DNA of 56,145 bases, the filler included, from Jimgerdemannia flammicorona (lineage: Eukaryota), in assembly GCA_003990765.1 (NCBI GenBank). It is 2 parts of 2 records of this genome, joined end to end, with 100 filler letters (N's around TTAATTAATTAA, not from the genome) between each part and the next. Parts side by side here need not be neighbours in the genome. Positions count along the whole stretch, not along the records: positions 28,146 to 56,145 come from RBNJ01000587.1; 1 more part is not named here. One strand, written 5' to 3'. The notes under the pieces were generated by a model. It worked only from the letters and a program-made list of their open reading frames with translations. It had not been told where the DNA came from and searched no databases. The translations under genes and the position numbers were made by a program. Shown piece by piece: positions 7,056 to 49,084 of the stretch (its first letter is position 1; each line of letters opens with the position of its first letter).

Positions 7056-7068
7056 ACTCTCCCCTTCT
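7056..7068 (-). other. Polypurine tract of A1
   Basis: AGAAGGGGAGAGT immediately before the 3' LTR on the minus strand; identical in A2. Confidence 0.9.
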
Positions 7069-28045: not shown

Positions 28046-28145
28046 NNNNNNNNNNNNNNNNNNNNNNNNNNNNNNNNNNNNNNNNNNNNTTAATTAATTA
28101 ANNNNNNNNNNNNNNNNNNNNNNNNNNNNNNNNNNNNNNNNNNNN
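28046..28145. other. Assembly gap with artificial all-frame stop linker
   Basis: 44 N + TTAATTAATTAA + 44 N = exactly 100 positions. Confidence 0.95.

Positions 28146-28195
<50 letters not shown>
28146..28195 (+). repeat. Poly(A) run, possibly the tail of LINE B across the gap
   Basis: About 50 A directly after the gap, on the same strand as LINE B. Confidence 0.5.
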
Positions 28196-28197: not shown

Positions 28198-31100
28198 AGA
28201 GCTCTAAGGAAAGGGTATACAGGATGGGTGATAAAGAATCTCTCTATAGTATCCCACAATCCAGAGGAAAGATTACACCTCTGTGACCATTGACTACCAA
28301 TGCTGCCTGACTGTCCTCCAGAAGACTTATAAGCAACCTCCTGAACTCTGGGGAAACACCCACCTGCTTCAGCACCCCCTCTAGCCAGACCCTCCTCACT
28401 CTGCCATATACCTTCTCCTAATCTAGAAACACCAATTGGCCATCAACCCTGGTAGCCCGAGCCCCTTCAATCACTCCATGGACCTAGGCCATCCCATCTC
28501 GAATCAACTGACTACTAACAAATCCTCTTTACTCGACTCCCAGTATCTGCTGAGTGATCCCCTATAGCCTAGTCACCAAGACCTTTATCACCAGCTTGCA
28601 GTCCATATCAAGGAGTATGATCAGATGCCAGTTCTTCCAATCTTCTCTTTTTCTCTTATCTTTATAGAGCAAGGAGACCAGCCCTAGATGCTGGCCCCCA
28701 ATCCAAGTTCCTGACTGAAGAACCTCATCACACATCCCCGTCAACTCCTCCAGTACTACCTCCACTCTGGCCATCTTCTTCCAAAAATCCCAGAGAAGCT
28801 GTAAGAGGGTTACTTTTTAGGGTAACTGTTACATAGTTCTAGAAGGGTTTTCTGGAAGTTCTGGATATTCTGGAAGACCATTTTCTTATGGTCAAGATCA
28901 ATTTCATATGGAGTATGTCCTCTATGCTTATTGATTTCAAGATTGGGTTGACATCTCTACCAAAGTCCTTTTTCGGACTAGTTCTGAATGTTCAGGATTT
29001 TCTGTATTTCAGGAAGTTCAAGAAACTAAGACCAGCTTAGTTGAATTGGCGTATTGCTGCAGACAATATCCAATTAGGAAATTTCGTGAGAGGGTTAGGA
29101 GTGGGACCTAACAGGGGGCGGATTTACTTAAGAGTGATTTGTGGGTTATGGAATAGGTTTATTTGCTATTCATAATATTGCTATATTAGGAGTGTTTGTA
29201 TAAAGGGGTATGAGGGGGAAGTATTTAGGAATGTTCTTGTGTGTTCGAGTCTAAGATTCTGAGGTCTGGGAAAGGGGGTATTTATACTAGTGAGGGGCTA
29301 TTTGGACTATGCTAGATATGGATATAGCACTAAGTGCTTTGCTGAGTCGGAATGCAGTCATATAGTACAAGTGTGATCTGACATGTCAAGAGATTGTCTG
29401 ACTGCTGAGTCAGTTCACAGTCATATTGTACAAGGCTAATCTAACTATACTATGACTGCTAGGCTATTTATGGGTTTAGGCACTGTCTGGGTAGTCCTCA
29501 ATGACATCACCATCGATTGCATCATCTCTGATGAAGTAGTCATCTATGAATAATGGTTCGCGGATTACTTCTCCTTGTTTGCTGAGGTAATAATACATTG
29601 GAACTTCGTCTCCATCCCCCAGGATAGCATCATCTATCTCGTAGGCTGGATAAGGTGTTGGTGGGTGAAGGATGGGTGTATTGTCTTCACTTTCGTCAGA
29701 TTCATTGTCTGTGTACCTTCTATAGGTTACAGCACTATGAGTTGCAGAATTGTAGTAAGCTGGTGGCTGTGGTTCATGTCGCTCGTACTCAGGTGGTGGA
29801 GTGGTTGGTTCAATCTCGAGGGTTGTCTGGAGGTACAGGTTGTGTTCTCCGGTCTCTTCATTATAGTTGAAGTAGTCAGGGGTGAATGTGGGTTGGTATT
29901 CATGCCAGTGGTCATTGTCCCAATAAGTCTTGTATGTAGTTATGAACTATTGTAAGTTTATTGGCAAGGTTGGCAGAGTGATCAGGATTGGCAGAGATCC
30001 TTGACTAGAGGTCATGTCGGCATCAGAGGGATCATTGTCTTCTACTTCATCTTCATCGAAGTGGATTATGTCATAGATGTCCTTCATGGTGTATCTAACT
30101 TGGGGCATTTGCAGGATGTGATCATTGGGGTGTGGAAAGGTTCTGTCTGTAGTTTCGACGTACTTGAGGTACTTGTGGTTGAGTTCTTGTATCATGTCAT
30201 CGATTTGACCATAGGACAGGGTAGCAACCATTTTGCTAGTAGTGACTTGGAGGTAGGGAATAAAGGTGCTGTACTCGTAGAAAAGTTCTCAATGTTTGCG
30301 GATAATTAGCTTCTGGTGTTGAGACATCTGGATAATGTCTGTATCATGGTAGTGTTTGGCCATATCTTCCAGGAGGCAGCCAATCTGGTAGTAGCTTGAG
30401 ATTTGTCCAATTCGGTGGGCCTTGCTAAGCATATTCAGAGCATTCCATCAGGCTTCCACAAAGTAGAGAGGTGCTAGGCTATGGATATTCATGAGGGGCA
30501 GAGGGGGTGTGGCTCGGTTGACAATAGTATTCCAAATGTCAGTATGGATATGGTTGTAGATCTCAATGGTCATATTTGTGTATTTGGAAGTTGTGGTTGT
30601 TGTTTGTTTTGGTTCTCTGATTCAACACATCTCGGTACTCGGTATATATGCATTTGGTCCTGATTGGTAAGATTCCGTTTGTGTAATTCTTGTGTTCTGT
30701 GACTTCGTATTGACTTAGCTTTGTATACTGTGACTTCTGTTTGACTCAGCTTTGTGATCAAGCAGGTGATTTCCTAGTTTGTTCAGAGGTCGCATGTGAT
30801 TTCAGTGGCTTGTTCAGAGGGTGACATGTAATTTCAGTGGCTTGGAGGTTGTGCACTTACAGAAGCCCATCTTCCCCTGGAGTTATCCCCTTGCTCATTA
30901 AAGCCAGGACCTTGCAGACTTCCTCCCCTCTCACTGAGTCCCCCAGAGCCCCTAGGCCCATTGCTGGGTTTGGATGCCAACCCTCCAACTGCCATTCAAT
31001 GTTCAAGACAACTTCACTCCCATCTTCCTCACTCCATAGGTCCTTACAGTGGGATCTTAGCAATTCCAGAATTACTGGAGTCCCCACCACCATCTCCCCC

Positions 31101-34100
31101 TCCTCATCCAAAAGATCATCCCACTACTGCTTAGTTCTCTGCACTTATAACATCTGTGATAAGAACCTAGTGGGTCTTTCTCCCTCCTCCAACCCTTGCC
31201 ACCTCAACCTTGCTATCATCCCCTTCAATTTAACCTCTTTCTCTAATCATATCACCTTCTTAAGCTCCTCAACTTCCTTTTGAATCCTCTCAATCTGCCA
31301 ATCTACTACCACTCTATCTTCTAGCATGCCTGCCCATCTCCCCAGGAGTGCCACCAGCACCAGCCACTGTGAGACCCAATGCACTCTCTGCTACTACTGA
31401 ATACTCCTCCCCTTCCCTGTCTCCCTCTAATATCTCTGAGCACTTGATTTCAGCCTCCTCCAACAATCTCCAATTACCAGTTCCTGCTCCTGCCACTGAC
31501 TGATTTTCCCAATGACCTCCAACTCCCAAGCAGCCTATAACTCACCATCCTCCAATAAAGAGGAATTCAGTCTCCAATGTCCAGGCCCATCCCCACTTCC
31601 CCCAAACCTCTCTCCCCCAAGCAGACCCTACCATCCAACCCACTACTTCAGCCCCTCATTCCTCTCTCACTATCGGTCCTGTCCACTACATTATCCCATA
31701 CTATATTGAAATCCCCCCCCAGGCAGTTGATCCCAGTCTCTCTCATAACACTAGCCTCTTACAAGTTCCTAATCTAGTCCACTCACTCCCCCCTCTCCAC
31801 TAGGTAATAGCATGACCCAACCATCAAAGGGCTCCATCCAGGCCTCTTCTATATTCCCTACACCAACCAACTCCCCTAATGTCCTATATCACCAATATGT
31901 ATCTCCCATCCCCTTTCAGACTAGGATACCCACCTGCCCAGACCACACTGCTGCTCCCCCCCACTCTCTAGTCCAATTCTGGAAATCCATATCTGCTTCG
32001 TAACATACATCCTGCAGTAAGAAAAGATCTGCATCCAGTCTCTTTAGCTATCCAAATAAGTACCTCCTCCTAGCTGCCCCCTGTAACTCATTTATATTCA
32101 AAGAGAATATTTTAGTTGTACTATTCATATTGAAGAATGTTTGAATTTAAGACCCCAGTCTAGTATTCCATGCTCATCTCATCCCCAGCCAGATCCAAGT
32201 ACTGCTCTGCTTCCAAGTCACCCTCTGCAACCATCTGAGCATCCAATGCCTCCAAGATTTCTTGACATTCCACCCCATTCACCACCTCTATCTCCGCCCA
32301 ATAGTCCATGCAGACCACTCTCCACTTCTTCAATCTCTTTCTCGAGCTCCACAAGTATGTTGCCTGGTTATTCGCAATCCCTCTAAGTTCCTCCTCTCTC
32401 TGATCATTGACTTGGTATTCAACTGATTCCAAGAGGACTGCCAGAATCTCATTCCGCACCTTTCTCAGTACCTCCTCACTATGAAGGATTTCCTCCCAAT
32501 GCCTCTCTTCCATAACCTGGAAGTCCTCTCCTCCCAGCTCCTCTGCTGCCACCCCTTCCAGAGTCTTTCACAGCCACTTCTCCTCATCTACCATCTCTGC
32601 CATACCCTGGGTGATCTGATCACCCCCCACCTCTAGGTCCACCAAAGCACTCCTCCTCACCAACTCATCCCACTCCTTATCCGGTACATCCAGTAACTCC
32701 TCCTCCCCCCCTGTCCCACCTGAGACACTATACTGACGGTGTACTCCTTTACTCATTTCTGCATCTACCTCCACACTGTCCTCTCTCTCCTCTCTTGGTC
32801 CATTCTGTGCCCCATCTTGGGCCATCCCACTTCCCCCCACCCATGCACTCTCACACAATCCTACTCTCTCATCCTCTGTGCTGCTGCCAGCTCCACTGCC
32901 ACCCAACTTCCCCAGCAGCTCCTTCTGGATCCTCCTCCCCTGCATCTTCTCTCAGGTCATCTGATCCATCCTGATCCTCTTCCTATTGACTACTTCCACC
33001 ACTATCTTAGCCTCATACTCCTTCCAAGCCAATCTCCTCCTCTCGACCACACCCACCAAATCCTCCAGAGCCTCAAGCAAATCTTTCTCCTCTTCCTGAG
33101 TCCTCTTCACCCATGTGACCTTGCACTCCACTGGTCTCCACTTTAGCATCACCAGCCAATCCCTTGTCTTCCCCATGTTTTCCTTTTCAGCCAGCCTCAC
33201 CCAGATGTTGATGTCACTAGTCCAGAGCTCTGTACCCTCCCAGACCTTGAACCCAATGTCCACAATCTCTCCATACTCCTTGACCACATCCACAATCAAC
33301 TCCCTGGCTCTCTCCCTTAATACCATAGGAAGATCCAATACCATCAACTGTACCACTCGGAGGTCCCAGTGCATGTACCTGGCCATAGAGACCACAACTC
33401 CACCCACCACCACCCCCTTCTCCATAGCAGCCAGCAATGCCTCCTCCTCCTCAAACCCCATCTCAACCCCTTCTTTCTCCTTCAAAAACTTCACTGATGC
33501 TGCCCCTTTTACCTCCTGCACCACCAGCCCTAAGATCATCCTTGCAGTCACCACTAAGCCCCTGAAACACAGTGTGACAGCAAATTCCAACCTTGATTTC
33601 TTGAGTAATGGTGCCAATACCATACCCATCATCCCATCTGCCAGGTCTCTGGGCCTCGTGCCCACCCCCTGTCCTGAACCATCAACTACCATCATATCTA
33701 AAATTTTTTTCCAAATCTCCAGTCACAGCTCCATCAACAGTCATATCTCCAGCCCCTACTTTCCCCCCTCTCCTACCACCAGACACTCCCCCAGGCACTC
33801 TTCCCTGTCCCCCAGCAGTAGCTGTTGATGCCTTCCCCAGGCCCAGTCAACCATCCAGACCAGAGGTCATTTTCTCCATCTTGACCTTGTTAGCAAAGGT
33901 CATCCTCTCCTCTCCTCATTATCTCAGGCTGCCCCTCTCTCCACCACCAGTACCTTGGCCAGCCATAGAGGCCCCTGACATCTCCAAACCATCTCCCCTT
34001 CTCCCCACTTGCTGTCAGTCAAAGACACCACTGCCCCCCTGGCCAGCCTGCTCACTAGTATGATCATTGCCATCTATGTCAATAGTCATCTATCACTAAA

Positions 34101-34156
34101 AACATTATAAAAAGTGTTGTTGAAGCCTTGTGCTACCTGAATTTTACTAGTGAAAG
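28196..34156 (-). mobile_element. LINE with intact 5' end (ORF1 ~34089-32150; ORF2 from 32128, truncated in RT), interrupted by a solo LTR
   Basis: ORF2 start MNSTTKIFSLNINEL. ORF 30857..31111 ends PGEDGL and resumes LWDFWKKMARVE after the LTR. WKNWHLIILLDMDCKL is an RT domain-1 motif. Confidence 0.9.
28800..30861 (-). mobile_element. Family A solo LTR (2062 bp) containing the LTR-ORF at 29476-30573
   Basis: Perfect 5-bp TSD GAAGC (28795-28799, 30862-30866), TG...CA ends, and no adjacent PBS or PPT. Confidence 0.97.
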
Positions 34157-35010
34157 GTGTGCTCCTTGATGGCCTCCATAATCAGCCTCCTTGCCATCTC
34201 TTTTGATACTATAGAGACATCTAGCACAGTCAACTATACCACTTGGGGATCTCAGTATAAATACTAGGCCATGGAGACTATCATCTCCCCCACTACCACT
34301 CTCTTCTCAATTACTTTCAGCAGTATCTCCTCTTTCTCAAAGCCTACCTCCACCCCTTCCTAACTCTTTAAAAACTTCACCAAGGCTGCTCTTTTTACCT
34401 CTTAAGCCAGTAGCCCCAGAGTCATCCTTATAATTACTACTAAGCTCTAGAAGTATAATGTAATAGTAAATTCTGATCTTAATTTCTTGAGTAACAGTGC
34501 CACCACCAGATCTATTATACCATCTGCTAGATCTCCAGGTCTTATATTCACCCTCTGTCCAGTTCTACTATCAGCTATCATATCTGGATTTTTTTCCAAA
34601 TTAGCAGTCTCCTTGCCATCAGCAGTCTCACTCTCTCTAGTCACTACTCTCCCAGCTCTACTGCCCTCACTACTATAGGCTGCTCCCCCATACCCTATAG
34701 CTCTTACCATCTCCTTGTCCTTCCTCAGCCAGCCCTTCAGTCCAGTCATCAGCTGACCCTCATTCTCCCTGGCTCTGATCATCCAGTGCTGCCTCCTCTC
34801 CTTTTATATCCTCTGGCCAGCAAGTCTCTTATACTTTCCCCCAAGCCATGACTCCTTCCCATATACTGTCAGTCAAAAGTACTAGGGCTACCCTGCTCAG
34901 TACACATCTCAGAATACTTAATAGTTGTCATATCACTAATATCTTTTTTTCAAAAATGATGTCTTGAATATTGCTAGAAGTTTGTATAATCCAAATATTA
35001 CTAGAGAAAG
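34157..35010 (-). mobile_element. Older LINE 5' fragment (5' UTR and ORF1 start)
   Basis: ORF 34447..34782 has NPDMIAD...RPGDLADG...LLKKLRSEF, homologous to ORF1. The 5' end CTTTCTCTAGTAA lies at 35010. Confidence 0.8.
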
Positions 35011-35179
35011 GTAGAATATAATAAGTCATACTTGGTGAAACTTGATAGAACATTATAGAGAGTCACTAATCATCAATTAGTAATTGATAGAATCTTGGTA
35101 GAACTATTTAGAAAACAGATTCTTAGTAAATGGCTAAGTAATTCTATACTATTCTAAGCTATTCTGAAATATTCTACTA

Positions 35180-38100
35180 AATAATATAATAAAAGAAAAA
35201 GATGATAATTTGGTAAAAAGAAAATAAAATATAGAGGATTATTACATTCTCCTCTACTTGAAAGAGAATATTACCTTCAATATTTATATTCATAGAGAGC
35301 TTATTGAGTATTCTTAAGATTTCCAACAGATTCTTAAGTACTATTATACTCCAGATGGCCTGTCCATTTGATAAAGTACTTAGTATAATTATAATATATA
35401 TATTTGTTAAAAATCTTCTCAACTTTATACTTAATATAACTATTAACCTAAAGAGATACTGATGATTGAGAAGTCTAGTTTAGATACTTGTATGAACTAT
35501 TATAATATAGCTTAAGCAGAGAGATATAAAAGACAGGATATATGCAGATAGTCTATAGTAGTATTAACTTATATACTATAAGAGATACTTGTTTAAGTAT
35601 CTCATAAAGACCAATATATCTTGCTTAGAGTTTCTTAGAAGAGCAGTTGACTTGAGATGCTAAATTAAGATTTATAGTAAATAAGAGTACTTAATTACCA
35701 ATTTTGAATTTGATCTTCTATCTCTTAGTATTAGTATATTTGGCTTATCATACATATCTGGATCTTGAGCAAGTTATCTTTAATAACTTGAATCATTGTA
35801 GCTATATTATAAATGAGATCTTAAGTGATAGAAACTTTAGAGAGTTCTTTTCTAACTTAAGCAAGTAGGTTGGATGGAGTATATACATATCTTAATTATA
35901 TAGTAACTTGAAAGATATAAAGTCTATTGAGACTTATACTGAGTTGTTATAGGTAAACTTAGCAAAGATAAGATATTATTCCTAATTATTTTATTTATAA
36001 GAAACATAGTTTCTTAGTATCTGCTCAAGGGTCTGGTTTGCTTGCTTAGTTTATCCATTAGTTTGTAAGTAGTATGCTATGCTTAGAGCTTATTGGGCTC
36101 CAAGTGTCTTGAATAATATCTGTCAGAAATAACTTGTGAATTTTAGATCTCAATTACTAATTGTGATCTTTAGAAGACTATAATTTCAAAAGATTGTCTT
36201 GAAGAATATTTGAATAGTCTCAGGGATAGTGACATTGGTCTTGATTAGTTCCATCTTAATAGTCTTAGTGAGGTGGTCAATAAAGATAATAATAGTATTA
36301 TTTTCTTGAGATATCTTAAGCAGTTGGATAATAAAGTCTATTATAACCTACTTTTATTTAGTAGCTAGAACTGAGAGAGGCTGGAGTAGACCATATGGCT
36401 GTGATTTTAATATCTTATTCTTTTGGTAGTAATTATATATAGATATATATTTTTTGATATCTTAGTTTATCATAGGTCAGAAGAAATAACAATAGATATT
36501 ATAGATGGTTTTCTGATATCTCATATAACTAGCAAGAAAAGAGTTATAGTTTTCTTTAAGAATCTTGAAGTAAAGATTGTTAGAGTTTGAAATGTATATT
36601 TTGTCATTCTTGTATATATGTAATTCTGTTAGTAATCTTATACTCTTTTGATAGGCTTGTAAGAATTTCTTTTATAATGAGATCCTGATAGTATCTTTTT
36701 TTTAATTTATCTAAAAGAGTCTTGTCTGGAGTCACTTTGATGATACTAAGATTAGACCTTCTTAATAAGGCATCAGTCACTATATTTATCTTACCTAGCT
36801 TGTAAATAATTTTGGTATTAAAGACTTGAATATACTCAATCCATTTTATTCAATTTGGAAATAGACAGAGACTTAAGTTGAGATATATAAGTAACTTATG
36901 ATCAGTGATGATATCAAAGTCTTGGCCTTTGAGATAGTATTGTCAATTTCATAGAGCCTTATAGATAGCCAGGAGTTTTTTTTTTATAGATGGTATATTT
37001 TTGTTCAATCTCATTTAGTTTTTATAAAGAATATATAACTGACTGAGATTCTTTGCTTGCATCTTAAGATAGTACTATACTGATTATATATTCAGATGTA
37101 TCTATAGTAACTGTGAACTATAGAGCTGAGTCTGAGTTATATAGAGTTGGTACAGTTATCAGTTTTATTTTCAGAGTTTAGAATATCTCTTGGCAGATAC
37201 ATAGAAGTCTATTAAAATGAGTTACTGATCTTCAACAATTTGGTCATGGGCTTAGAAATATCAGAGTAATTTTTAATAAATTGATGGTAATACCCAGATA
37301 GTCTTAGAAATATCTGATATTATAGATATTTATTAAAATAGACCAATCTGAGACTATTTAAACTTTCTTGAAATTGGGCTAAATACTATTGGCTGAGATA
37401 ATATGACCAAGATATTCTATTTTCTTTTTGAAGAATTTGTATTTGCTAAGCTTACAGTAAAACTTATTTTCTCACAACTTCTTAAATACTTATTAGAGGT
37501 GCTTGAAGTATTCTCTTTCTGATATACTGAATATCAGAATATTATCTAAGTAGATGATAACACAAATATTAAAGTATGGTTATAGAATGTCTTATATCAA
37601 TCTCTGAAAGATTGGTAGTATATTGGTAAGATTAAAGAGTATGATCAAAAATTCTATAGACTATAGAATATTTTGAAAACAGTCTTAAGAATATCTTCTT
37701 TCTTAATATAGACTTGATAATAATTAGCCTGAAGGTTTAATTTTGAAAAGATCTTAGCATATAGGAGTCTGTCTAATATTTCATCTCTTCTGGATAGTAG
37801 ATATCAGTTCTTAACTATGATCTTATTGAGAATATAGTAGTTAATATATATTTATATAGTATCATCCTTTTTCTTGATAAAAGAATAAGTATACTATAGG
37901 GTAATTTGCTTGGTTAAATATATCCTTTAGCAGATCTTTCAATTCTTTTTGAAGAGGTTCTAGTTCAGGCTATAATATAGAATATAGTAACTTATGTAGA
38001 TACATATTTAGAGCTTGGGAGAATTTTGATTTTATAATCTATACTTCTTTTAAGTAGCAGTCTTATAGGCAGATTATTTGGAAAAATATTCTTAAATTCT

Positions 38101-40376
38101 TGAATCAGAGATTAGACTGTCTTTGAGAAATCCTTTCTTATTTCTGATTTAAGAGTTATATAATTGCCAAGAATGTCTATTTGTACTTTTTAAAAAGCTT
38201 CTTGAATTAGATTACAGATATAATTTTCACTAATACCTTTGCAGACTTCTTTACTTTTAGTGTGACCTTCTTTTCTTTTTGATTTAGTATGAGTTTGGTT
38301 TTTATCTAATTAATATTAGAGTTGTATAGTACTAATCAGAATTTTCTCAAAATGATATAGTGTTCTTGTGGGGGTGCAACATAGAGATTCAATTTTTCAA
38401 AGTGCTCTTGTATTATATAGGGTAACTTGGCTACCATTCTGTTAATTTAATATTCTTTATAATCAGCTATAGAAATCTTAAACTCTACTTATCATAGTAG
38501 CTTAATAGTAATGATCTTCAGTTTCTTTACTATCTCTTCACTAATAAAGTTATTAGATATATTACTATTAATAAGGATATCTATTTCTTGTCCTTTGATT
38601 TTTCCTTTGAATGGTAGTAGATTGGTGTTAATGATACTAATATTCTCCTTATGGCTTATACTTTCAGTACTTCTAAATCCTTCAGTACTCTAAGCAGTTT
38701 CTTCTAGATTTATAACTTTCTTAATTATTAGTACTTTGACTTATTCTAAGATTAGTTGTACAATCTGGTCTTACTTCTTAATTTCAAAGAGTTATATATT
38801 ATTGTTGATCAGAAGTACTTTGATTTCTCTATAATAGTCTGGATCTATTATCTCTATACCTAGGTCAATATAATGTTTAGTATTAAGATCTAATTATGGT
38901 GAAATCTTTCTATAATATCCTTTAGATATCTGTATGACTAGTCCAATAGCTATAAGTTATCACTGTCCTGCAGAGATTATTATATCTTGAATAGCTACTA
39001 GGTTCAACCTAATTGCTTCTGAAGTTTTTACTTCTAGTATAATAGTATCCAAATATAGTTTCTGAACTATCAGATGTACTTCTTCAATTTGAGTAATGAG
39101 TATTACTATTTTCTTCTTAGTAATGGCTAGGGCCTTCTTTATTTCTATTTTGTCCTTAGTCTTTCTTGAGCATTTAGTAACAATATAACCTTCTTTTTAG
39201 TAGTTAAAGTAGACTTTACTTTTATTTAATTTTTTCTTTTTTTCAGATATAAGTCTTAATTTGATAACAGTATCTAGATCTATTAGAATAGAACCTATAA
39301 TCTTTTTGGGATATTCATATCCTTGTTAGAGTTTCTTGAATTGTTTAGAGAAATAATTTCTTCTAAAAGAGATTGTATCAAAGTAGTTAGTAATCAATAT
39401 TACTTCTTCAATAGTGTTTGGATCTCATAGTTTTACTTCTTGTCTAGTATAATTCTTGAGTTCTCATATATATCTATCAAGCTTTTCAGCTTTGCTAATA
39501 TTATTAATCTTCAAGGCTATACTTATGAAGATAGCAGTATAGACCTTGATTAATCCTATTTATCACAGAGATACCAACTTGTCTCTGATCATTTTTTTCA
39601 AGTTAATGGGCTTAAACTGCTATATAAGTTGATCTTGAAACTTATTCTAGTCTAAGAGGTCTTTTTCTTTATCTCTAGCTATTTGGACTTTTGTTTTCTA
39701 TCAAATAACTGTATTTTCTCATAGTAGTACTCCTATATAAGCAACTGACTTCTCATTTAATGTATCTATTATTACTAAGTATTAGTTCAAATTGAAGAGC
39801 CAGGTTTCAACATCACTACTTCTTCTATTATAGAGTTTTGGTTAGTAATGACTTAAAGTGAGTCTTTTTATTTTTGATAGAGAGGTCTGCTATTGGTCCT
39901 TTACCTTTAGAATCTAATGCTGTCTTTATTGCTTATATCTTTACTTATATTTCTTAATAGGTCTGCATTAGCTGTGCTATTTGTTCTTAGAGCTGTAGTA
40001 TATCCTCTATAGAGACCATAGTGTTAAAAAGGATTTATATTAGTAAGAAAGTGAGATTTAATCTTTTCACTACTATTAATTATAATAAACATATATATTG
40101 TAGAGAATAATTATACTTATTAAAGTACAAGAGTACTTCAATATAGTTAAGTTAGATGAGATCTAAGACTTAGACTATATATTAGTAAATATCCAAATAG
40201 AAATATATAACTAGATTTAAGAAATAGAACTTAAGAAGTTTGATTACTTTCAGGAGATTTAAGTGAATGTACAAATAACTAACTAGACTAAGCTTTATTG
40301 AAGTATTTTGATAGAATATTTATATAAAAGAAATAGAAAGAAGAAGAAACAGATAGAATATTACTAAGCTAGATAT
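35180..40376 (-). mobile_element. Highly decayed chromodomain Ty3/Gypsy relic D (no dUTPase seen)
   Basis: Recognisable remnants: chromodomain KYFIKWTGH (~35330-35400), integrase, RNase H, RT YLDNIL (~37540), gag ETWLFNL (~39790-39815), and PPT at 35247-35257. Very AT-rich; LTR limits uncertain. Confidence 0.75.
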
Positions 40377-41874
40377 TGTAACAGTGACCCCAGAATGATA
40401 ACATCAGCACAGGAGACAGTCTTTCTTTATAAGCCACCAGATCGGAGTACAAGAAGATCATATGGCATATAAGATGAGCAATGATGACCAACTGTGAGTC
40501 ATTGTGACCACAGCACAAGCATCCTGAAGAATATAAAAGAAGGATTAAGGAACCACAGTAGCAGCAACCAACAAGAACCACCAATCTCAAAAATAGCTCA
40601 AAGACTTACCACAAACAAAATGCCTGCTGCCCGCCAAACCTCAAGGTCAAGGAATCATCAAGGTATCTTGGTCGAGGAAAGAATGTTCCAAGACATCAGA
40701 AGAGCCATGAGGACCTACTCAAGAAGGACTCCTAGTGTTAACCTGGGTACTGCAGACCTCTATCACTTCATTCTCTACTGTCGTGAAATGGAAACAAGGA
40801 TCACCATTGCTACCAAATGCCTCCAAATGTGGCAGGAGTACGAAATAGGAAACCTCCTCTGCTGGGAGTTCCCACAGGTAAGCCCTCAAGAGCTACAAGA
40901 TGCCACTCCCATGGACCTATGTGAGGCAAGGACAGTAAAGAAGATCCATCAGATCTTCAGGCATGCACTATGGTCGATCCCCAACTTGGAGTATGTTAGA
41001 GTCTTAGACTTCAGAGATCTGTCATCCTACCATATCAATGTACTAGAAGCCAGGGTAGCTACAGAAGCCCAGTCTACCATCACCCTCAACAGCAAAGAAG
41101 TAGAAGACTTCTGGCACCCTATCTTTCAGGACAACCCAGACCAATTCCTGCAAGAATTGATCTCAGTATTCCAAGGCCCAAGCATCCAGGTTAGATCTCC
41201 CCAAGACCCCACATTTGTCCCCTATTTTGTGGAAGAGAACCTCATAGACTAGAGAGCTCCAGATCTTGTCCCCACCGAACGTGATAATGTCATTGGCGAT
41301 GATGTCATCCCGCACGACATATCTGAAGCATGCAAAGAACACGAAATGCATGACAATAAAGTACGTGAGACATGCAGCCTGCATGATGAATTCGTAGACC
41401 TCATCTTCTTCAGTGATGATGATGATGAAGCTCCTATGGTCCTGAACTTTCTGCTCTAAGTTCTTTGTTACACTGGATAATGCCAGCACCAGTATTCTGA
41501 GGTGATGCAAAATTATTCCAGCACTGACATTTTGATGTGATACTGGATAATACCAGCCCTGGAACTTAGTTGTTTTAGTTATTGGAATTTATATTTAGCT
41601 TTATATCTTAGCAACTATTGAATTATATTTTGTATAAATACCTCTCTTATTTCCTCTGAAATAAAGTCAGTCAAGTTCCGGTTTCACTTACACACACTTC
41701 CTTGCAAGCAATCTAAGAGATAACAAGACAGTTAAAGATAATAAGTTTGAGAACTATAAGACCTTGGGAAGGCACTCCAATAAGAACTTGCTTATAACAA
41801 CTTAAGTTAGTCTAAGAGATACACCTTGAAGAGAATCTGGCATATTTGAAGGACTCAGTGACCACTACATAATA
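40377..41874 (+). repeat. C 5' LTR (1498 bp)
   Basis: Direct repeat of 47576-49084. TATAAATA at 41633-41640 and AATAAA at 41660-41665. Confidence 0.93.
40620..41459 (+). pseudogene. LTR(U3)-encoded ORF of family C, ~279 aa, unknown function
   Basis: ATG at 40620. TAG at 41250 is TGG in the 3' LTR, and the frame continues to ...FSDDDDEAPMVLNFLL*. The second copy (47819-48640) has its stop at a different codon. Confidence 0.85.
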
Positions 41875-41992
41875 ACTTGGTGCCCATTGGCTGGTGATTT
41901 AAGACAAATCCCTCACTTTCAAGCTGAAAAACGAACAACCCCACAACAACTACCTTGACTACAAGAGTCACCCTGCAAGAATTAAAGACAAG

Positions 41993-44900
41993 ATGGAAAT
42001 GTGTCCCTCTACATTCTATAGATATACTACTGAAGAGTCAATCCTGACCTTCATTAAAGACTTTGAACAATTTGCTACTGTACGAGCCCTTGGTGTGGAT
42101 GCTCAATTGGCCCTTCTACTAGTCAGCCTCAGAGGACCTGCCAGAGACAAGTTCAATGCAGCCACTATTGCCGATGCTGGTACAGCCAAACTTGCCAACA
42201 TGAAGGCCTTCCTCAGAACAACATATTATACCGAAGAGATCAAACAAGCTCTCAAGGATCAACTCAATACTATCTGCCAGGGACTTAGTGAAGATCCCAA
42301 CTCATTCTATACCCGAATTTGCCACCAGATTGTCTTGGCTGGCTATGATGATTGCCTCAAGGAACAAATAGTAGATTCAACCTTCCTCAAAGGAGTTCAC
42401 TCTGAAATTGCCCTAGCAATCTGGTCTACTCCAGCTGCACTGACCCTTGATCAGAAAGTGGTCTTTGCACAGAGATATTGGACTGCCAGACACCCTGCCG
42501 AACACTCAATGGAGAAAATAACTGGTATCAAGATGGAGCCATCAAAGCTAACTAGTATCTTACCTACCACAGTTGTAAACAGACAACCAACCCCACCTAT
42601 CCCCAAGACAACCAAAGCTGACCCAGTGGAAGAACTTGCCAAGCAGTTCACCAAGATGACTGCACACCTTGGTAATGTTGTTAGAGAAGTCTGAAGCGCC
42701 AACAGGAGACCAGTGCAGAGATTTGCAGCTGCTACAGAAGAATACAATAACATCACATACTTCAGATGTAGAGAAGAAGGCCACTATGCAAAGAATTGCA
42801 TGACTGAAACAAGACGCAAAGCCCAACCAAGCAATGCTAGCAGAACCAGAGAACAAACCAACACAGTAGTCAATGAGGAGATTGGTGACACTAATGATGA
42901 AGAGTATTATAAGGAGCTCGAATTCTACCCTGCTACTGAAGGTACCAGAACCCGGTCCAAGCCCTATGACAAGAAAAGCAATAGCAAGCCAGTTGGAAGA
43001 CCAAAAAAGACTCCAGCTGTCACTATTCAAAGCAAGACCCAATATGAGAAGATTGATCAAGATATGGAGTTAGACGAGGCTGCCCGCCAAATTATCGAAG
43101 GTACTACTCCAGTCTCAGGAGAAAGCGAGAGCAAGAAGAAACAGAAGCTGTACAAGACCAAGATCTACCAGTATGATATCTATAAGAACCTCAAGGAACA
43201 GAAGGTCAATACCACTTTTGGGCAGCTAGCTGAGATCCCTGCCTTCAGACAGCAATTGAGAGTAGGACTTGCAACTACTATCAAGAATCAAGAGTACAAG
43301 ATTGTAGAAGCTCACAATGCACAAGAAGAATCTGAGAACTCAGGTGAAGAATCCAAAGACCAGTACAAGACATCAGCCTATACCCCCTGCCAGATCGAAG
43401 ACTGTATCTTTGATGCCATCATTGATACTGGTGCTGGAGGATGCCTTATGAGCAAGAAGGCAATTGACCACCTAGGTTGGGACATTGAAGAGTCCACCAA
43501 AATGGTCTATATCATAGCAGACAGTACACAAGCTACCCCCCTTGGCAAAATCCGAGAAGTTCCCATCAAGATAGGAGGAGCTACCATCCCAGTAGACGTA
43601 ATTGTTATAAGTGCCACCAACTATGACATCCTCATTGGCAATCAATGGCTTCACAAGACCAAGACCATCATTGACCTCAATACCCAGAAGATGCAGATCA
43701 ACTACAGAGGGAGAAAGGTACAAGTTTCTATCAATGTCCACAAAGGAGTCCTGCCAGACATGGAGGAAGAAGATGAAGAAGACACAGAGGTCTTCATGCA
43801 CTCGGTAAACAAGAACAAGAACAAGACACCCAAGCTCACAGATGAGCAGTGGTATAACAAGATCATCGATGGGTATGCCTCTCAAGGAAGATGCCCCCAT
43901 GGTACTAGAATGTACTGCTCCGAACACCTGAATGACTGCTGGTCCTGTATCAGTGAAGTCAGGAAAATCCGCCAGCAAAAATATGAGCAAGAAGCTGCTG
44001 AAGCAAAAAGGAAAGCTGAAGAAGATGACCAGCCCCCAGAGCTTCAAGCTGACAGTGATGATGAGGAGAAACAAGAATCAGACATCACTCTCAAGGTCAA
44101 GAAGTTTCACCCTGAAGTCAAGATCCCAGAATACAAGACTGAAGGAGCCATAGGAATGGATCTTGCCAGCATCTAAGATGCTACCCTCGAACCACAGACC
44201 ACCACCCTACTTGGCACTAGAATTGGAGTCAAGTTGCCAGAAAACCACACTGGAATTATCAAGACCAGGAGCAGTCTGGCCAAAAGCAAAATCTCAGTTG
44301 AAGGAGGAGTAATTGACCCTGATTACACTGGTGAGATTTTTCTCATAGTCAGAAATCACAACCACACCACCCCCTTCAAAGTCAAGAAGTATGACAGGAT
44401 TGGTCAGATGCTGATCCATGAAATCAAGAAGCCTAAGATCATAGAGGCCACTGAACTTATCAAGACCAAGAGAGGAGAACAAGGCTTTGGATCTACTGGA
44501 AGAGGAGCCTATGCCACCACCAAGATTACCGAACTTGAGCATAAGAAAGACAAGGACCAGAACAAGCACACATATACCATTGGAGAAAAATTTCCCCTAG
44601 AGGAACAACTTCTCAAGATCCTGCACCAGAATGAAGGAGTACTTGCTACAGACTTTAGGGATATCCACAATCAAGAACCCAAGTACCACCACAAAGTTGA
44701 CACTGATGATACCAAGCCTATCTACCAGAAAGCCAGACCCATACCACCTGCCTACAGAGAGTGGCTGCGAGCCAAACTCAAGGAAATGGAAGAAGCTGGA
44801 ATTATCAAGCAAGCTATCAGCCCCTGGGCCTCACTCATTGTCCTTGCCCCAAAGAAAGAAAGCAAGCCTGGAGAGTTTGCACCAAGACTCTGCATTGACT

Positions 44901-46021
44901 ACAGAAAACTCAATGCCATTACCAAGAAGGATAGGTAGCCCTTGCCAAATATTCAAGAAATCCTTACTACCCTTGGAAGCGAAGCCAAATACTACACCAC
45001 CTTGGATCTGTTCTCAGGCTTCCATCAGATCGGTCTTACTCAAGATGTCAGTGAGAAATCAGCCTTCATCACATCTGATGCCACCTACATCTATCTGCAA
45101 ATGCCATTTGGAATATACAATGCCCCAGCAAGTTTCCAGCAAATGATGAACAGAGTCTTCAGCAACGAGATTGGAAAATGGCTCTTTGTCTATGTTGATG
45201 ATGTAATCATCTTCAGCAATACTGTATGAGAACATGTCAATCATATACAGCTAGCTCTCAAGAGGCTCAAGGAGCATGGCCTCTACATCAAGCCCAAGAA
45301 ATGCAAGTTTGCAGCTTAAGAAATCACCTACCTAGGACACCTCATCAACCAGACCAGAATCCACACAGACTCCATGAAGATCAAGGCTGTTGCAGCCTAC
45401 CTGAGACCCAGAACAACCACAGAAGTCCACGCCTTCCTTGGACTGGCCAGCTACTATAGAAGATTTATCAAAGGATACTCCAACATTGCAGCACCTATCT
45501 ATGAGCTACTGAAGAAGGAGACCAAATTCGAATGGACCAAGGAGTGCCAAGAAACCTTCAATGAACTCAAGACCAGGTTGACCCAAGCACCCATCCTCAG
45601 AAGACCAGACTGGAATCTAGAATTCATCCTGCAGACAGACGCGAGTGCTATAGGACTTGGAGTGGTCCTAGCTCAGAAGAAAGATGGACATGAATATGTC
45701 ATCTCCTATACAAGCTGAGGTACCCGTGGAGCAGAACAGAACTATGAGTCATATAAGCTCGAATGCTTAGTGGTAGTTTGAGCAGTAGACAAGTTCCACT
45801 ACTACCTAGCTGGAAAACACTTCACTATTCAGACAGACCATTCCACTCTTACCTGGCTATTCCACACTCTGAACCCCAAAGGAATATATGCCAGATGGAT
45901 CTACAGACTGCAAGAATATGACTGTACTGTCAAGCACCGCCCAGAAAAGACCAATACCAATGCCGATGCACTCTCAAGGATATCCCAAAACATCCCCATC
46001 AAGACTATTCAACATGAATAA
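41993..46021 (+). pseudogene. gag-pol: C gag-pol: Gag, CCHC knuckle, protease, Cys module, dUTPase, RT, RNase H (single frame)
   Basis: In-frame ORFs 41993, 42713, 44234, 44942 and 45374. Motifs IIDTGAG; GMDL, RSSLA, GGVIDPDYTGEI, RGEQGFGSTG; LCIDYRKLN, MPFG, YVDD; TDAS, ADALSR. Confidence 0.95.
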
Positions 46022-47261
46022 GGAGCTATACTATGGATTAATCAGCTACCTTGGGCAGTGGAAGATGCCCAACCACCTCGAACCCTGGACAATCACCATT
46101 ATCAACCAGACTTGGAAACAGTTTAAATTAGACAACACTACACTCAGAAAAGGAGGAAAGCTAGTAATACCTGAACACAAGAAGTATCAAGTAATAAAGG
46201 AAGTATACGAGCAAGGACACTTAGGAGGAACCAACACATACGATAAGACAAGAAGAACTATGTGGTGGCCCAAGATGGAAGAAGACCTGCACCAATTTGT
46301 CAAAGGGTGTGACAAGTGCCAAAAACAGAAATAAGATCAGTAAGACCAGGCACCTGGATCATCAAGAATTGAGCCTATCCCCTTCCACCACATTGCAATG
46401 GATATCATTGGACCACTACCAGTAACACTATCAGGAAACTGCTATATTATAGTTATTGTAGACCTCTTCACCAAATGGATAGAGGCAGGAGCATTACAAG
46501 AAGCCAATGCCCTCTCTATAGCTGATTTCCTACATCGAGAAATCATCTGCTACTACAAGACACCAAAGAAAATCACAACAGACCACGGCACAGAATTTGT
46601 CAATGGATTCCATGAGATAATGTACCAGAAATACAAGATCCAGCACATCAAGACCACTGTATACCACCCTCAAGGAAATGGACAGACAGAGAGAACCAAC
46701 AAGACCCTCAAGAACATCCTAGCAAAGATCTCAGAGACATATGAGAATTGGGATAACTATCTCTCAACTGCCCTCTCTGTTCTACAAGACATATGATCAC
46801 AGAGCACACATTTTACCCCAAGAGAGCTGCTCTTCAGAGAAGAAGATTCTAATGGAACCTCAGCCACAAATCTAGACCTAACTTGGAGATGGGTTGATGC
46901 AGAAATCCGGAGACTACACCAAATCAGGAAGAAGGCTGAAGATTATATCACTAAGTTACAAGCACTGACAAGAAAGAATGTGGAAAAGAATCACAAGGCC
47001 CTAGAACCCATCCGAATTGGAGAAAAGGTTCTACTGTATCGAAATATGGTAGAAGCCTCATGGTCACAAAAACTGGAGCCCAAATGGGAAGGACCCTTCT
47101 ACATACAAGATATCAAGGGAACTACCTTCTGGCTTAGAAAAATCTCAGGGACCATACTGCCTACCATGGTACATAGGAACAGACTCAAGAAGTACCATGA
47201 ACCTATACAAGAGAAGCAAAACATGATGACTGCCTGCGAGGTTCTAGTCCGCGAATCATAA
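46014..47261 (+). pseudogene. int: C integrase (HHCC, DDE core, GPF), in the +1 frame relative to pol
   Basis: GHLG...CDKCQ; MDIIGPLP, VDLFTKW, TDHGTEF, YHPQGNGQTERTN; KWEGPF. Confidence 0.9.
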
Positions 47262-47575
47262 CAGCATGTCCCATGACCAGCAGGCTATCTGTCTGGACTA
47301 TTCTCTAAGGAATACAGCACTGGCAACTACTCATCCGTGAAGACTTTCACAGTCAGAGGAGTTTGAACCGTCAACTGATTGGTCAAGATCAGAATCAGAC
47401 CCTTGCTCTATATAAAGGGAGCGACCCTTCACCATCACACCAAAATACAAAGGGAAGATGCCAGCCTATAAACACCAGTTTTTGACCCCTTGCCAGAGGT
47501 TATGGGATCAGCAAATTTTTCAGGACTGGACCAATGAATAAGGATGCTCAGGAAGATCCTTATTCAGGAGGAAGA

Positions 47576-49084
47576 TGTAACGGTGACCCCAGAATGATGA
47601 CATCAGCACAGGAGACAGCCTTTCTTTACAAGCCACCAGATCAGAGTACAAGAAGATCATATAGCATATGAGATGAGCAATGATGACCAACTGTGAGTCA
47701 TTGTGACCACAGCACAAGCATCCTGAAGAATATAAAAGAAGGATCAAGGAATCACAGTAGCAGCAACCAACAAGAACCACCAATCCCAAAAATAGCTCAA
47801 AGACTTACCACAAACAAAATGCCTGCTGCCCACCAAATCTCAAGGTCAAGGAATCATCAAGGTATCTCGGTCGAGAAAAGGATGTTCCAAGACATCAGAA
47901 GAGCTATGAGGACCCACTCAAGAAGGACTCCTAGTGTTAACCTGGGTACTGCAGACCCCTATCACTTCATTCTCTACTGTCGCAAAATGGAAACAAGGAT
48001 CACCATTGCCACCAAATACCTCCAAATGTGGCAGAAATATGAAATAGGAAACCTCCTCTGCCAGGAGTTCCCACAGGCCAGTCCTCAAGAGCTACAAGAT
48101 GCCACTCCCATGGACCTATGTGAGGCAAGAACAGCAAAGAAGATCCATCAGATCTTCAGGCATGCACCATGGTCGATCCCCAACTTGGAGTATGTTAGAG
48201 TCTCAGACTTCAGAGACCTGTCATCCCGCCATATCAATGCACTAGAAGCCAGGGTAGCCACAGAAGCCCAGTCCACCATCACCCTCAACAGCAAAGAAGT
48301 AGAAGACTTCTGGCACCCTATCCTTCAGGACAACCCAGACCAATTTCTGCAAGGATTGATCTCAGTATTCCAAGGCCCAAGCATCTGGGTTTGATCTCCC
48401 CAAGACCTCACATTTGTTTCTTATTTTGTAGAAGAGAACCTCATAGATTGGAGAGCCCCAGACCTTGTTCCCAATTTCCCCACCACAGCCGAATGTGATG
48501 ACATCATCGATGACATCATCCCATGCGATATACCCAAAGTACATGAAATGTGTGACCTATATGATGAATTTGTGAATCTCATCTCCTTCAGTGATGATGA
48601 TGATGATGAAGCTCCCATGGTCCTGAACTTTCTGCTCTAAGTTCTTTATTACACTGGATAATGCCAGCACCAGTATTCTCATGTTACACTAGATAATGCC
48701 AGCACCAGTATTCTGAGGTAATGTGAAATTGTTCCAGTACTGGCATTTTGATGTGATACTAAATAATGCCAGCCCTGGAACTTAGTAGTTTTAGTTATTG
48801 AAATTTATATTTAGCTTTATATCTTAGTAACCATTGAATTATATTTTGTATAAATATCTCTCTTATTTCCTCTGGAATAAAGTCAGTCAATTTCAGTGCA
48901 ATATATAATCCCTTGCAAAGCAATCTAAGAGATAATAAGACAGTTAAAGATAAGAAGTTTGAGGACTATAAGACCTTGGGAAGGCACTCTAATAAGAACT
49001 TGCTTATAACAACTTGAGTTAGTCTAAGAGATATCTTGAAGAGAATCTGGCATATTTGAAGGACTCAGCAACCACTATATGACA
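47576..49084 (+). repeat. C 3' LTR (1509 bp)
   Basis: TGTAAC...TGACA ends; preceded by the PPT; contains ORF 47693..48394. Confidence 0.93.

Follow-up and report, generated by a model that had tools for sequence, protein, structure and literature searches.

A decayed protein-coding gene within the LTRs of a fungal Gypsy element and its distant homologue in a second Gypsy family

Introduction

Can an LTR of a fungal Gypsy element contain a protein-coding gene of its own, and do unrelated-looking element families share it? These questions are raised by an open reading frame (ORF) at positions 40620 to 41459 of a 56,145-nucleotide stretch of DNA from Jimgerdemannia flammicorona (the window). A sequence-only reading of the window had proposed that two different Gypsy families in it carry homologous LTR proteins. 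Retrotransposon LTRs are usually regarded as purely regulatory DNA, and to our knowledge the pipelines that find LTRs do not search them for genes. The sole textbook gene that we know to lie wholly in U3 is sag of MMTV, a vertebrate retrovirus. In a full-text literature search we found no fungal Gypsy element described as having a protein gene in its LTR, and on this basis we regard the LTR gene described here as a previously undescribed gene for an acidic protein.

A gene copy in the U3 region of a Gypsy element

The element that hosts the ORF (element C, plus strand) is a dUTPase-carrying Ty3/Gypsy element with paired LTRs around gag and pol. Self-BLAST paired its 5′ LTR (40377 to 41874), which has a TG...TA end after transitions, with positions 47576 to 49077 at 90 to 94% identity, the direct repeats being 93.8% identical between 40377 to 41274 and 47576 to 48473 and 90.3% identical between 41466 to 41867 and 48682 to 49077. 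The 3′ LTR spans 47576 to 49084 and is preceded by the PPT AGGAGGAAGA. Between the repeats lies an internal region (41993 to 47261) with many stops, which encodes gag followed by PR, dUTPase, RT, RNase H, and IN (Pfam order: PR, dUTPase, RVT_1, RT_RNaseH, Integrase_H2C2, rve); the repeats are therefore the LTRs of a Gypsy element. The PBS-like site TGGTGCCCATTGGCTGG occupies 41878 to 41894, 3 nt past the 5′ LTR, where TGGTGCCCATTGG begins at 41878, and a 4-bp target site duplication (TSD), ATAT, is present on both flanks (40373 to 40376 and 49085 to 49088). With its LTR pair, PR-RT-RNaseH-IN order, PPT, PBS-like site, and short TSD, element C has the features that define the Metaviridae. It is not assigned to the chromoviruses, which are defined by a chromodomain at the integrase C-terminus: Pfam searches in three frames returned no Chromo domain at an E value of ≤1e-4, a level at which decay could mask a weak domain.

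The ORF begins with an ATG at 40620, 243 nt into the 5′ LTR. Its ATG-to-stop part comprises 210 amino acids and ends at a premature TAG (41250 to 41252), past which the frame is open, with no other in-frame stop, as far as the natural TAA at 41457 to 41459, giving 279 codons in total. The main core promoter of the LTR, GTATAAATACC (41632 to 41642, plus strand), follows 173 nt after the end of the ORF and is itself followed by the poly(A) signal AATAAA (41660 to 41665). The ORF lies wholly upstream of both signals and is therefore in U3; the coordinates of the ATG, stop, LTR, and TATA bear out its earlier placement at this position in U3 ahead of the TATA. A second copy is present in the 3′ LTR (47819 to 48640, plus strand), where the single premature stop is a TGA (48392 to 48394) rather than a TAG. 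In decayed form, the interval from 40620 to 41459 represents a genuine protein-coding gene that lies whole within the U3 of the element C LTR. Every copy of the LTR gene in the window is dead, with 1 to 7 premature stops per copy.

A second family with an LTR gene

The second family (family A) is a chromodomain Gypsy family with 2-kb LTRs on the minus strand of the window. Its LTR ORF has 365 codons and starts 285 nt into the LTR. The copy at 5673 to 6770 (A1; all 365 codons, two premature stops) lies in the LTR at 4998 to 7055, and the 5′ LTR of the same element carries the copy at 14188 to 15285 (A2, also P0010), which has one premature stop. A third copy, with three premature stops, is found at 29476 to 30573 in the LTR at 28793 to 30861. 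The remaining two A-type copies are more damaged: that at 24164 to 25259 has four premature stops within its first 230 codons and a frameshift thereafter, and that at 15572 to 16639 has seven premature stops and a 3′ end cut by the nested insertion of another family A element. All five are on the minus strand.

The families had been described as differing in LTR DNA, PBS, TSD, domain order, and chromodomain status, and shuffles, flank sequences, and Pfam searches agreed on every count. Family A has the order gag-dUTPase-PR-RT-RH-IN-SH3-chromo (Chromo at 1e-15 and SH3_Tf2-1 at 1e-16), whereas element C has the order gag-PR-dUTPase-RT-RH-IN and no chromodomain by Pfam. The TSDs are TGATG/TAATG in family A versus ATAT in element C, and the sequence at the PBS position after the family A LTR differs from that of element C. 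The noncoding LTR DNA of the two families is not significantly similar, local alignment scores being equalled by 141, 11, and 189 of 500 shuffles in three comparisons. RT and dUTPase are 36% and 43% identical, respectively, and the N-terminal parts of gag have no detectable similarity (E = 5.1), a worse match than that of the LTR-protein pair.

Relatives and coding constraint

The C-type relatives are P0001 to P0007, P0011, and L001. Among 51 candidates, 7 proteins matched at an E value of ≤0.01 with 52 to 88% identity, and in these the reading frame continues past the stop of the window copy. A search with a C-family profile returned 8 proteins among 7,767 candidates, the sole new one being an 87-amino-acid fragment. 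The most informative relative, L001, is a 1,345-nt metagenome contig whose LTR status is taken from its colinearity with the element C LTR alone. It contains an intact 323-codon ORF that is 58 to 60% identical to the window C-type protein over residues 1 to 213. Compared with the two window C-type copies, its dN is 0.38 and 0.34, its dS 2.3 and 1.9, and its dN/dS 0.17 and 0.18, respectively; these are Nei-Gojobori estimates, distorted here by extreme transition bias. For family A, the open relatives are P0008 (87% identity) and P0009 (65%). In all five inter-element A pairs the true frame had the lowest dN/dS of the six frames (0.22 to 0.31 versus 0.38 to 1.53), and the two LTRs of one A element were near neutral (0.49 in the true frame versus 0.42 to 0.95 in the others).

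Based on the intact relatives at 52 to 88% identity and the low dN/dS of L001, the interpretation of the LTR ORF as a real gene under purifying selection holds at the level of sequence. The gene had been called both selected and old. The first description is supported by ORFs that stay intact across saturated dS (∼2) at a dN of 0.34 to 0.38, as well as by the frame comparison in family A, and the second by host elements only 36% identical in RT.

Homology between the A-type and C-type proteins

The window A-C pair alone does not establish a relationship: BLASTP gave a nonsignificant E value of 0.35, and hhalign gave P values of 0.06, 0.027, 0.048, and 0.0078, depending on the input. The profile-profile comparison that had been put forward as the check on homology was therefore decisive neither way, with a probability of ∼1 to 2% and never above ∼2%. 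The N-terminal domains by themselves reached an hhalign score of 21.3, which was equalled by 2 of 300 column shuffles.

L001 supplied the link. It matched P0008 at an E value of 1e-6 (24 of 104 positions identical and 51 of 104 positive) and window copy A2 at 6e-6 (28 of 121 identical). The Smith-Waterman score of L001 with P0008 was 84, a value reached by none of 3,000 shuffles (maximum, 63; Gumbel P = 9e-7), and the best scores among 59 unrelated window ORFs were 57 against L001 and 41 against P0008. Of the 20 cross-family pairs compared, this one scored best, and the 16 without L001 had E values of 0.008 to 27. The N-terminal domains (∼120 residues, 20 to 23% identity, predicted helical) are therefore homologous. 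A joint MAFFT alignment of ∼125 columns needed just one 1-residue and one 3-residue indel. Toward the C-terminus, both types have a short acidic motif of the type RDDxIxxDVI; a colinear 13-column match in the C-terminal part, separate from that of the N-terminal domain, was equalled by 1 of 150 shuffles. Judged by these sequence comparisons, the A-type ORF is a true, very distant homologue of the C-type ORF, as had been proposed, the decisive link depending on one contig, L001.

The peptide blocks on which that proposal was built fared less evenly. Their register was recovered by BLASTP, hhalign, and MAFFT, but the blocks themselves are consensus-like: RIRADIW has no match in the six frames of the window, whose copy reads CIRADIW, and the PSVNLGTADPYHFI and AKKIHQIF blocks come from the 3′ LTR copy.

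We consider it very improbable that the A-C likeness is chance and that the ORFs are perhaps open through constraint on LTR cis elements. The values for the window pair would fit such an explanation, as would the helical nature and similar composition of both sequences. L001 also matched an out-of-frame ORF inside pol (score 57; E = 3e-5; 3 of 3,000 shuffles; the same ORF against A, E = 2.6), which means that modest matches can be chance. The L001 matches to A-type proteins, in contrast, score well above the best unrelated match. They are accompanied by the second, colinear motif and by the same LTR position and layout in both families, and the dN/dS of ∼0.17 with an intact 323-codon ORF points to coding constraint. 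We also considered derivation of the LTR gene from gag or pol and rejected it; the sole match was the out-of-frame pol ORF just mentioned, found with L001 and not with A, and we judged it to be chance.

Given homology, we think it probable that the common ancestor of the dUTPase-bearing lineages already carried the gene in its LTR and that the gene co-diverged with these lineages rather than being swapped between them. The LTR protein, at 20 to 23% identity, is more diverged than RT or dUTPase, as expected under simple co-divergence. Exchange of the gene, as put forward in the earlier reading, is an unlikely alternative: the gene would have moved between Gypsy lineages within an LTR, by template switching or recombination of copackaged RNAs, or one host gene would have been captured more than once. 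This alternative draws on the contrast between the hosts, which are unlike in domain order, chromodomain, PBS, and TSD but have in common the gene and the identical 11-nt core promoter GTATAAATACC. Passages of a study of fungal Gypsy families note that the position of dUTPase varies and suggest independent acquisitions (PMC2864245), so modules do move in that group. The greater divergence of the LTR protein runs counter to exchange, as does the unlike noncoding LTR DNA of the two families; any exchange was therefore ancient and is indistinguishable here from vertical descent. Capture of a host gene is further disfavored by our searches, in which we found no host (non-LTR) homologue among 1.84 billion representatives or in word-indexed prokaryotic, viral, and metagenomic collections. 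An exhaustive phmmer search with the A protein returned two matches among the 1.84 billion representatives, neither of them C-type, and a profile search of viral contigs with both family profiles returned no match.

Properties of the predicted proteins

Both A- and C-type proteins are soluble and strongly acidic (pI 4.5; net charge, −21 to −36), with a maximum 19-residue Kyte-Doolittle hydropathy of 0.74 and no transmembrane segment. The acidic tails that had been noted in both carry net charges of −15 (residues 213 to 271 of the C-type protein P0002) and −20 (residues 201 to 330 of the A-type protein). The C-type proteins have an Arg-rich N-terminal arm (residues 1 to 45; pI 12; 7 to 10 K+R) that is absent from family A, and a hydrophobic, Leu-rich C-terminus (…LNFLL in five sequences), which in family A is different.

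Pfam searches matched no family for three of the proteins at an E value of ≤1 and, for 14 family members at ≤10, returned only two single-member noise matches. The best match of the joint profile in a PDB sequence search had an E value of 0.53; neither Pfam nor this search detected a DNA-binding fold or motif. In the ESM Atlas, the best feature score for P0002 was 0.83 (Atlas model pLDDT, 0.35). Residues 1 to 150 of L001 scored 0.90 to 0.93 against unnamed bacterial and viral clusters, which we dismissed as noise, the 135 to 148 shared features falling short of the 170 typical of true relatives. AlphaFold2 drew helices in both N-terminal domains, in models that are unusable (pLDDT, 38.4 for C-type and 29.9 for A-type).

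Promoter-like signals and arrays

The LTRs of the two families have a common layout: a TATA-like box, then the ORF, then the main GTATAAATACC. In element C, the TATA-like box GAATATAAAAG (40529 to 40539, plus strand), a candidate promoter of the LTR gene, lies 81 nt 5′ of the ATG. The same 11-mer is found at 47728 to 47738 in the 3′ LTR and at positions 1 to 11 of L001, despite the saturated synonymous sites of that contig. In family A, the TATA-like CATATATAC stands ∼60 nt 5′ of the ATG in A1 and is present in all five copies. The main promoter 11-mer GTATAAATACC has six matches versus 0.03 expected, occurs in five A-family LTR copies, and lies 3′ of the ORF in both families; L001 contains both it and AATAAA.

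In element C, the interval that separates the stop of the ORF from the main TATA contains a 35-nt tandem array of 2.6 copies (41472 to 41561, plus strand), which has one extra unit in the 3′ LTR and is absent from L001. The arrays, put forward earlier as part of a protein-plus-target-site system, differ between families A and C and, from their sequence, look like ordinary U3 enhancer repeats; as targets of the LTR protein they would be hypothetical. The heptamer TGAGTCA, a putative AP-1/Gcn4-type site, lies 5′ of the ORF at 40495 to 40501 (plus strand). It is not enriched window-wide (19 matches versus 14.1 expected); the 3′ LTR has a further match, at 47694, and every A-family LTR has two.

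Possible expression and function

As a whole, the observations are probably best explained by a homologous, co-diverged, LTR-autonomous gene for an acidic nuclear regulator. That each LTR would be a self-contained transcription unit is possible, if not quite probable, an idea based on the conserved GAATATAAAAG 11-mer and its position. Transcription would begin from the TATA-like box 60 to 80 nt 5′ of the ATG and proceed through a short CA-rich leader and the ORF to the poly(A) signal of the LTR. Either LTR, and even a solo one, could then give rise to the protein with no need for a spliced subgenomic RNA.

More tentatively, composition and analogy lead us to propose that the LTR protein may be a nuclear regulator that raises the expression of its own element. 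Its N-terminal domain would provide targeting, with activation or anti-silencing the task of the long acidic/hydrophobic tail, on the model of foamy-virus Tas or plant VANC. We doubt the more specific version of this proposal, in which each LTR, solo ones included, would be a full gene whose putative sequence-specific product recognizes the fast-evolving arrays of its own LTR in a self-activating or anti-silencing circuit. If it were true, protein and target would co-evolve in each lineage, with thousands of dispersed LTRs serving as sources and sinks.

It is similarly doubtful that the homologous gene has a nontranscriptional role, as an RNA or particle factor (Rev/Rem-like export or translation, or a Gag-associated chaperone) made from a spliced subgenomic RNA. 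The Arg-rich arm and the hydrophobic Leu-rich end of the C-type proteins would suit such a role, and an ORF in U3 is by construction at the 3′ end of all full-length element RNAs. Complex retroviruses, in passages of PMC3185757, express their 3′ accessory genes through spliced RNAs. The TATA-like box directly 5′ of the ATG, kept across saturated divergence, argues against this role. Family A, moreover, has no such arm and a different C-terminus, so that the features suggestive of RNA binding or export do not extend to the whole family.

Comparison with known systems

Sag is a type II transmembrane glycoprotein that acts on vertebrate T cells. The LTR proteins described here, in contrast, are acidic, have no hydrophobic segment (KD19 0.74), no Pfam match, and no sequence relationship to Sag, and their host is not a vertebrate. 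Passages of PMC11998498 present MMTV sag as a U3 ORF of an LTR retroelement under purifying selection. The C-type ORF likewise sits within U3, after the start of the LTR at 40377 and before the main TATA at 41632, and both families, like MMTV, bear dUTPase.

Tas (Bel1) of foamy viruses has an acidic C-terminal activation domain. The LTR proteins described here likewise have an acidic tail, and the conserved TATA-like box ahead of the ORF is a candidate promoter. Foamy viruses are described, in passages of PMC3185757, as having a 3′ accessory region with one ORF reaching into the 3′ LTR and a dedicated second promoter, and Tas as activating its own promoters. Here, in contrast to Tas, the complete ORF lies inside U3 together with its putative promoter, and both are therefore duplicated in the two LTRs; there is no sequence similarity, and DNA binding and trans-activation by the present protein would be hypothetical.

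VANC, the anti-silencing protein of Arabidopsis VANDAL elements, is, according to passages of PMC5735166, a nonenzymatic TE protein with diverged versions in related TEs and with variable tandem repeats as targets. Diverged protein versions and family-specific tandem arrays are likewise found together in the LTRs studied here. VANDALs, in contrast, are plant DNA transposons, the proteins share no sequence similarity, and the arrays here co-occur with the protein gene.

Extra ORFs with no assigned function are mentioned for other Gypsy elements in passages of two papers: the env-like ORF of Athila, the “add. ORF” of fungal chromoviruses (PMC2864245), and brtn of Botrytis BcGypsy1 (PMC8365987). 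Those passages place them 3′ of pol and ahead of the 3′ LTR or give no location, and none is described as wholly in an LTR.

The LTR gene explains the 1.5- to 2-kb length of these LTRs and implies that solo LTRs may remain protein coding. Its product is a concrete candidate for control by an element of its own expression or for escape from silencing. If it regulates in a sequence-specific manner, fungi would have their own counterpart of Tas or VANC, from which programmable regulators might be derived; otherwise, it would still be a new family of retroelement accessory proteins, currently overlooked by genome annotation. A conserved, selected gene with no known domain is present in the LTRs of at least three dUTPase-bearing Gypsy lineages, with RTs only 36% identical. 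The third lineage of the LTR-protein family is represented by a much decayed A-like copy at 54173 to 54693 (minus strand), which is 53% identical in one frame and 45% in another.

Two Gypsy families carry an ORF in their LTRs

The window contains two Gypsy families. Family A, on the minus strand, is represented by five LTR copies of ∼2 kb each and has the internal order gag-dUTPase-PR-RT-RNaseH-IN-SH3-chromodomain. Element C, on the plus strand, has LTRs at 40377-41874 (5') and 47576-49084 (3'), with ends read from the sequence. Its direct repeats are 93.8% identical between 40377-41274 and 47576-48473 and 90.3% identical between 41466-41867 and 48682-49077; ATAT occurs at both flanks, and a purine tract precedes the 3' LTR. 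Pfam identified PR, dUTPase, RT, RNase H, and integrase domains, in that order, and no chromodomain in element C. The families had been described from sequence alone as unlike in domain order, chromodomain status, PBS, TSD, and LTR DNA. Pfam bore out the first two and the sequence the next two, and noncoding LTR DNA showed no significant likeness between the families (local scores matched by 141/500, 11/500, and 189/500 shuffles). Both families carry dUTPase, on opposite sides of the protease (7056-13571, minus strand; 41872-47575, plus strand), and share a Cys/His-rich stretch of ∼60 residues between dUTPase and protease (tblastx, 42% identity).

The C-type ORF of the 5' LTR (40620-41459, plus strand) runs from an ATG at 40620 to a TAA at 41457-41459 and comprises 279 codons when the single TAG at 41250 is read through. 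As proposed, it lies in U3, preceding both the core-promoter 11-mer GTATAAATACC (41632) and AATAAA (41660). The 3' LTR copy (47819-48640, plus strand) is open at the position of that TAG and has a TGA at 48392. The A-type ORF has 365 codons, from MTTEIY to …DYPDSA, with 1, 2, 3, 4, and 7 premature stops in the individual copies. These stops are of the kind made by transition-biased decay: nearly all differences between copies are transitions (71:2 between the two C LTRs; 79:2 between A1 and A2), and singleton changes (n = 183) are chiefly C>T (87) and G>A (43). CpG observed/expected is 0.18 to 0.19 in the elements (repeats 2001-31000 and 40377-49077) and 0.00 in a 27%-GC block at 35001-40300. 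The transition bias and CpG depletion suggest deamination or RIP-like decay.

A complete A element (4998-15570, minus strand; LTRs 4998-7055 and 13572-15570) has inserted into a second A element, interrupting the protein ORF of its LTR, the halves of which lie at 15572-16928 and 4273-4995 (minus strand); the 5-bp duplication reads TGATG/TAATG. A third, heavily decayed A-like copy (54173-54693, minus strand) is without the Tyr/Pro-rich C-terminal half of family A.

Coding status and selection

On sequence grounds, the LTR ORF is a real protein gene. A word-indexed protein search returned 51 candidates, including seven C-type relatives at E ≤ 0.01 (52 to 88% identical), all open across the position of the window TAG to a conserved …DEAPxxLNFLL end. 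The metagenome contig L001 (1,345 nt) carries an intact 323-codon C-type ORF that is 58 to 60% identical to the window C-type; against the two window C copies, dN is 0.38/0.34 and dS is 2.3/1.9 (saturated), for a ratio of 0.17/0.18. Because of the transition bias, we compared dN/dS across all six frames. The true frame was lowest in 5/5 inter-element A pairs (0.22 to 0.31 versus 0.38 to 1.53), and this, together with the intact L001 ORF and its low ratio, upholds the earlier view that the gene is selected. Within one A element, the LTR pair gives a neutral-looking pattern (0.49 in the true frame versus 0.42 to 0.95 in the others); we place little weight on the C LTR pair (0.30 versus 0.42 to 1.03). 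The searched databases yielded only two outside A-type relatives, both open: P0008, spanning the N-terminal 128 aa (87%), and P0009, spanning the C-terminal 247 aa (65%).

Homology of the A-type and C-type proteins

The window A-C pair by itself does not establish homology (BLASTP E = 0.35; 20/86 identical). The colinear blocks noted by eye were recovered by profile-profile alignment of the families (hhalign P = 0.06, 0.027, and 0.048; probability, about 1 to 2%). The N-domains alone scored 21.3 (P = 0.0078), a score attained by 2/300 column shuffles, and a distinct 13-column motif near both C termini (…RDDxIxGDVI…) gave P = 0.022, attained by 1/150 shuffles. Together these colinear matches hint at homology, but weakly.

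Contig L001 served as a stepping stone and supplied the decisive evidence. We tested all 20 cross-family pairs, which are non-independent and among which the L001 link is the best: the four containing L001 gave E = 9e-7 to 5e-5, and the remaining 16 gave 0.008 to 27. L001 matched P0008 at E = 1e-6 (24/104 identical, 51/104 positive) and the window A2 copy at E = 6e-6 (28/121 identical). The L001-P0008 Smith-Waterman score of 84 was attained by 0/3000 shuffles (maximum, 63; Gumbel P = 9e-7), and the top scores among 59 unrelated window ORFs (≥100 aa) were 57 against L001 and 41 against P0008. Since L001 is unquestionably C-type across the same residues, the A and C N-terminal domains are homologous by transitivity, a link that depends on this one short contig and that supports the original proposal of a homologous LTR protein in a second, different Gypsy family. 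The joint alignment of ∼125 columns has only one 1-residue and one 3-residue indel, and N-domain identity to A2 is 28/120 for L001 and 24/120 for the C-type protein P0002.

The L001 link is tempered by the top scorer against L001 among the unrelated ORFs, a 181-codon stop-free ORF (44601-45146, plus strand) located between dUTPase and RT, out of frame with pol. It matched L001 by BLASTP (E = 3e-5; 29/100 identical, 29% gaps) and by Smith-Waterman (57; 3/3000 shuffles) and gave no match to the A-type protein (E = 2.6). We rejected it as a relative of the LTR protein; the L001 match is probably due to chance.

Between A and C, RT is just 36% and dUTPase 43% identical, in keeping with the "old" gene family that had been postulated. 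The gag N-terminal parts are homologous by position yet have no detectable similarity (E = 5.1). The 20 to 23% identity of a fast-evolving accessory protein is what vertical co-divergence would predict. We saw no sign of LTR-protein exchange between families A and C in the identity comparisons, and the suggested exchangeable gene module is speculation.

Candidate promoter boxes and tandem arrays

The ORF starts 243 to 285 nt into the LTR in both families, with a TATA-like box upstream. In C, the box GAATATAAAAG lies at 40529-40539, 81 nt 5' of the ATG; the 3' LTR and the first nucleotides of L001 carry it unchanged, despite the synonymous saturation of L001. In A, the box CATATATAC lies about 60 nt 5' of the ATG in 5/5 copies. 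Downstream of the ORF follow, in order, family-specific tandem arrays, GTATAAATACC, which is common to both families (6 matches versus 0.03 expected), and AATAAA. A transcript from the upstream box would meet the LTR poly(A) signal about 1.1 kb on, so each LTR could, judging from position and conservation, be a complete gene.

The family-specific arrays are present and differ between lineages, as first described, and vary even between both LTRs of one element. The C array (41472-41561, plus strand; 35-nt unit, 2.6 copies) gains one further unit in the 3' LTR; L001 lacks the array, with different short repeats in its place. In family A, doublets of 31 and 32 nt precede the ORF, and the third A-like copy is followed by a 19-nt unit in 3.8 copies (53991-54063, minus strand). 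U3 regions often contain tandem enhancer repeats. The window analysis found no link between the arrays and the LTR protein, and the envisaged protein-plus-target-site system is speculation. TGAGTCA, a candidate AP-1/Gcn4-type site, precedes the ORF in both families: there are two copies per LTR within the 31-nt repeats of A1, A2, and A4 (6905-6942, 15420-15457, and 25398-25435), a single copy in each of A3 and A5, and one per C LTR (40495-40501 and 47694-47700). Over the whole window it shows no enrichment (19 matches versus 14.1 expected).

Protein character and comparison with known systems

For the LTR proteins, we found no Pfam family, no PDB relative (best E = 0.53), and no credible ESM Atlas match. 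AlphaFold2 drew both N-domains as helices in models that are unusable (pLDDT, 38.4 and 29.9). Both types have a pI of 4.5 and a net charge of −21 to −36; an Arg-rich N-terminal arm (pI 12) is present in the C-type and missing from the A-type, and the A-type has an extra Tyr/Pro-rich stretch of ∼130 residues. Acidic runs and short hydrophobic clusters occur together in the tails, which may resemble acidic activation domains or SUMO-interaction motifs.

The nearest positional analogue is MMTV sag, whose LTR-encoded product is subject to purifying selection; the virus likewise carries a dUTPase (PMC11998498). Unlike Sag, a type II membrane protein, the A- and C-type proteins contain no hydrophobic stretch (maximum KD19, 0.74). 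The nearest functional models are plant VANC and foamy-virus Tas: Tas is served by an internal promoter of its own and foamy-virus accessory ORFs extend into the 3' LTR (PMC3185757), and VANC proteins target tandem repeats that differ between related TEs (PMC5735166). Among fungal Gypsy elements, a variable dUTPase position and an unlocated "add. ORF" have been reported (PMC2864245), as has an extra ORF, brtn, in Botrytis BcGypsy1 (PMC8365987). Full-text literature searches gave no description of a protein gene wholly within a fungal Gypsy LTR. We conclude that the LTR proteins constitute a novel accessory-gene family of LTR retrotransposons that is unannotated and unusually located.

Other features of the window

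Two GC-rich (0.5 to 0.59), strongly C-skewed segments (1-1226 and 32921-34147) are 77.6% identical across 1,235 nt, and their long ORFs have no Pfam matches. A 50-nt poly(A) tract (28146-28195) follows two 44-N runs (28046-28089 and 28102-28145).
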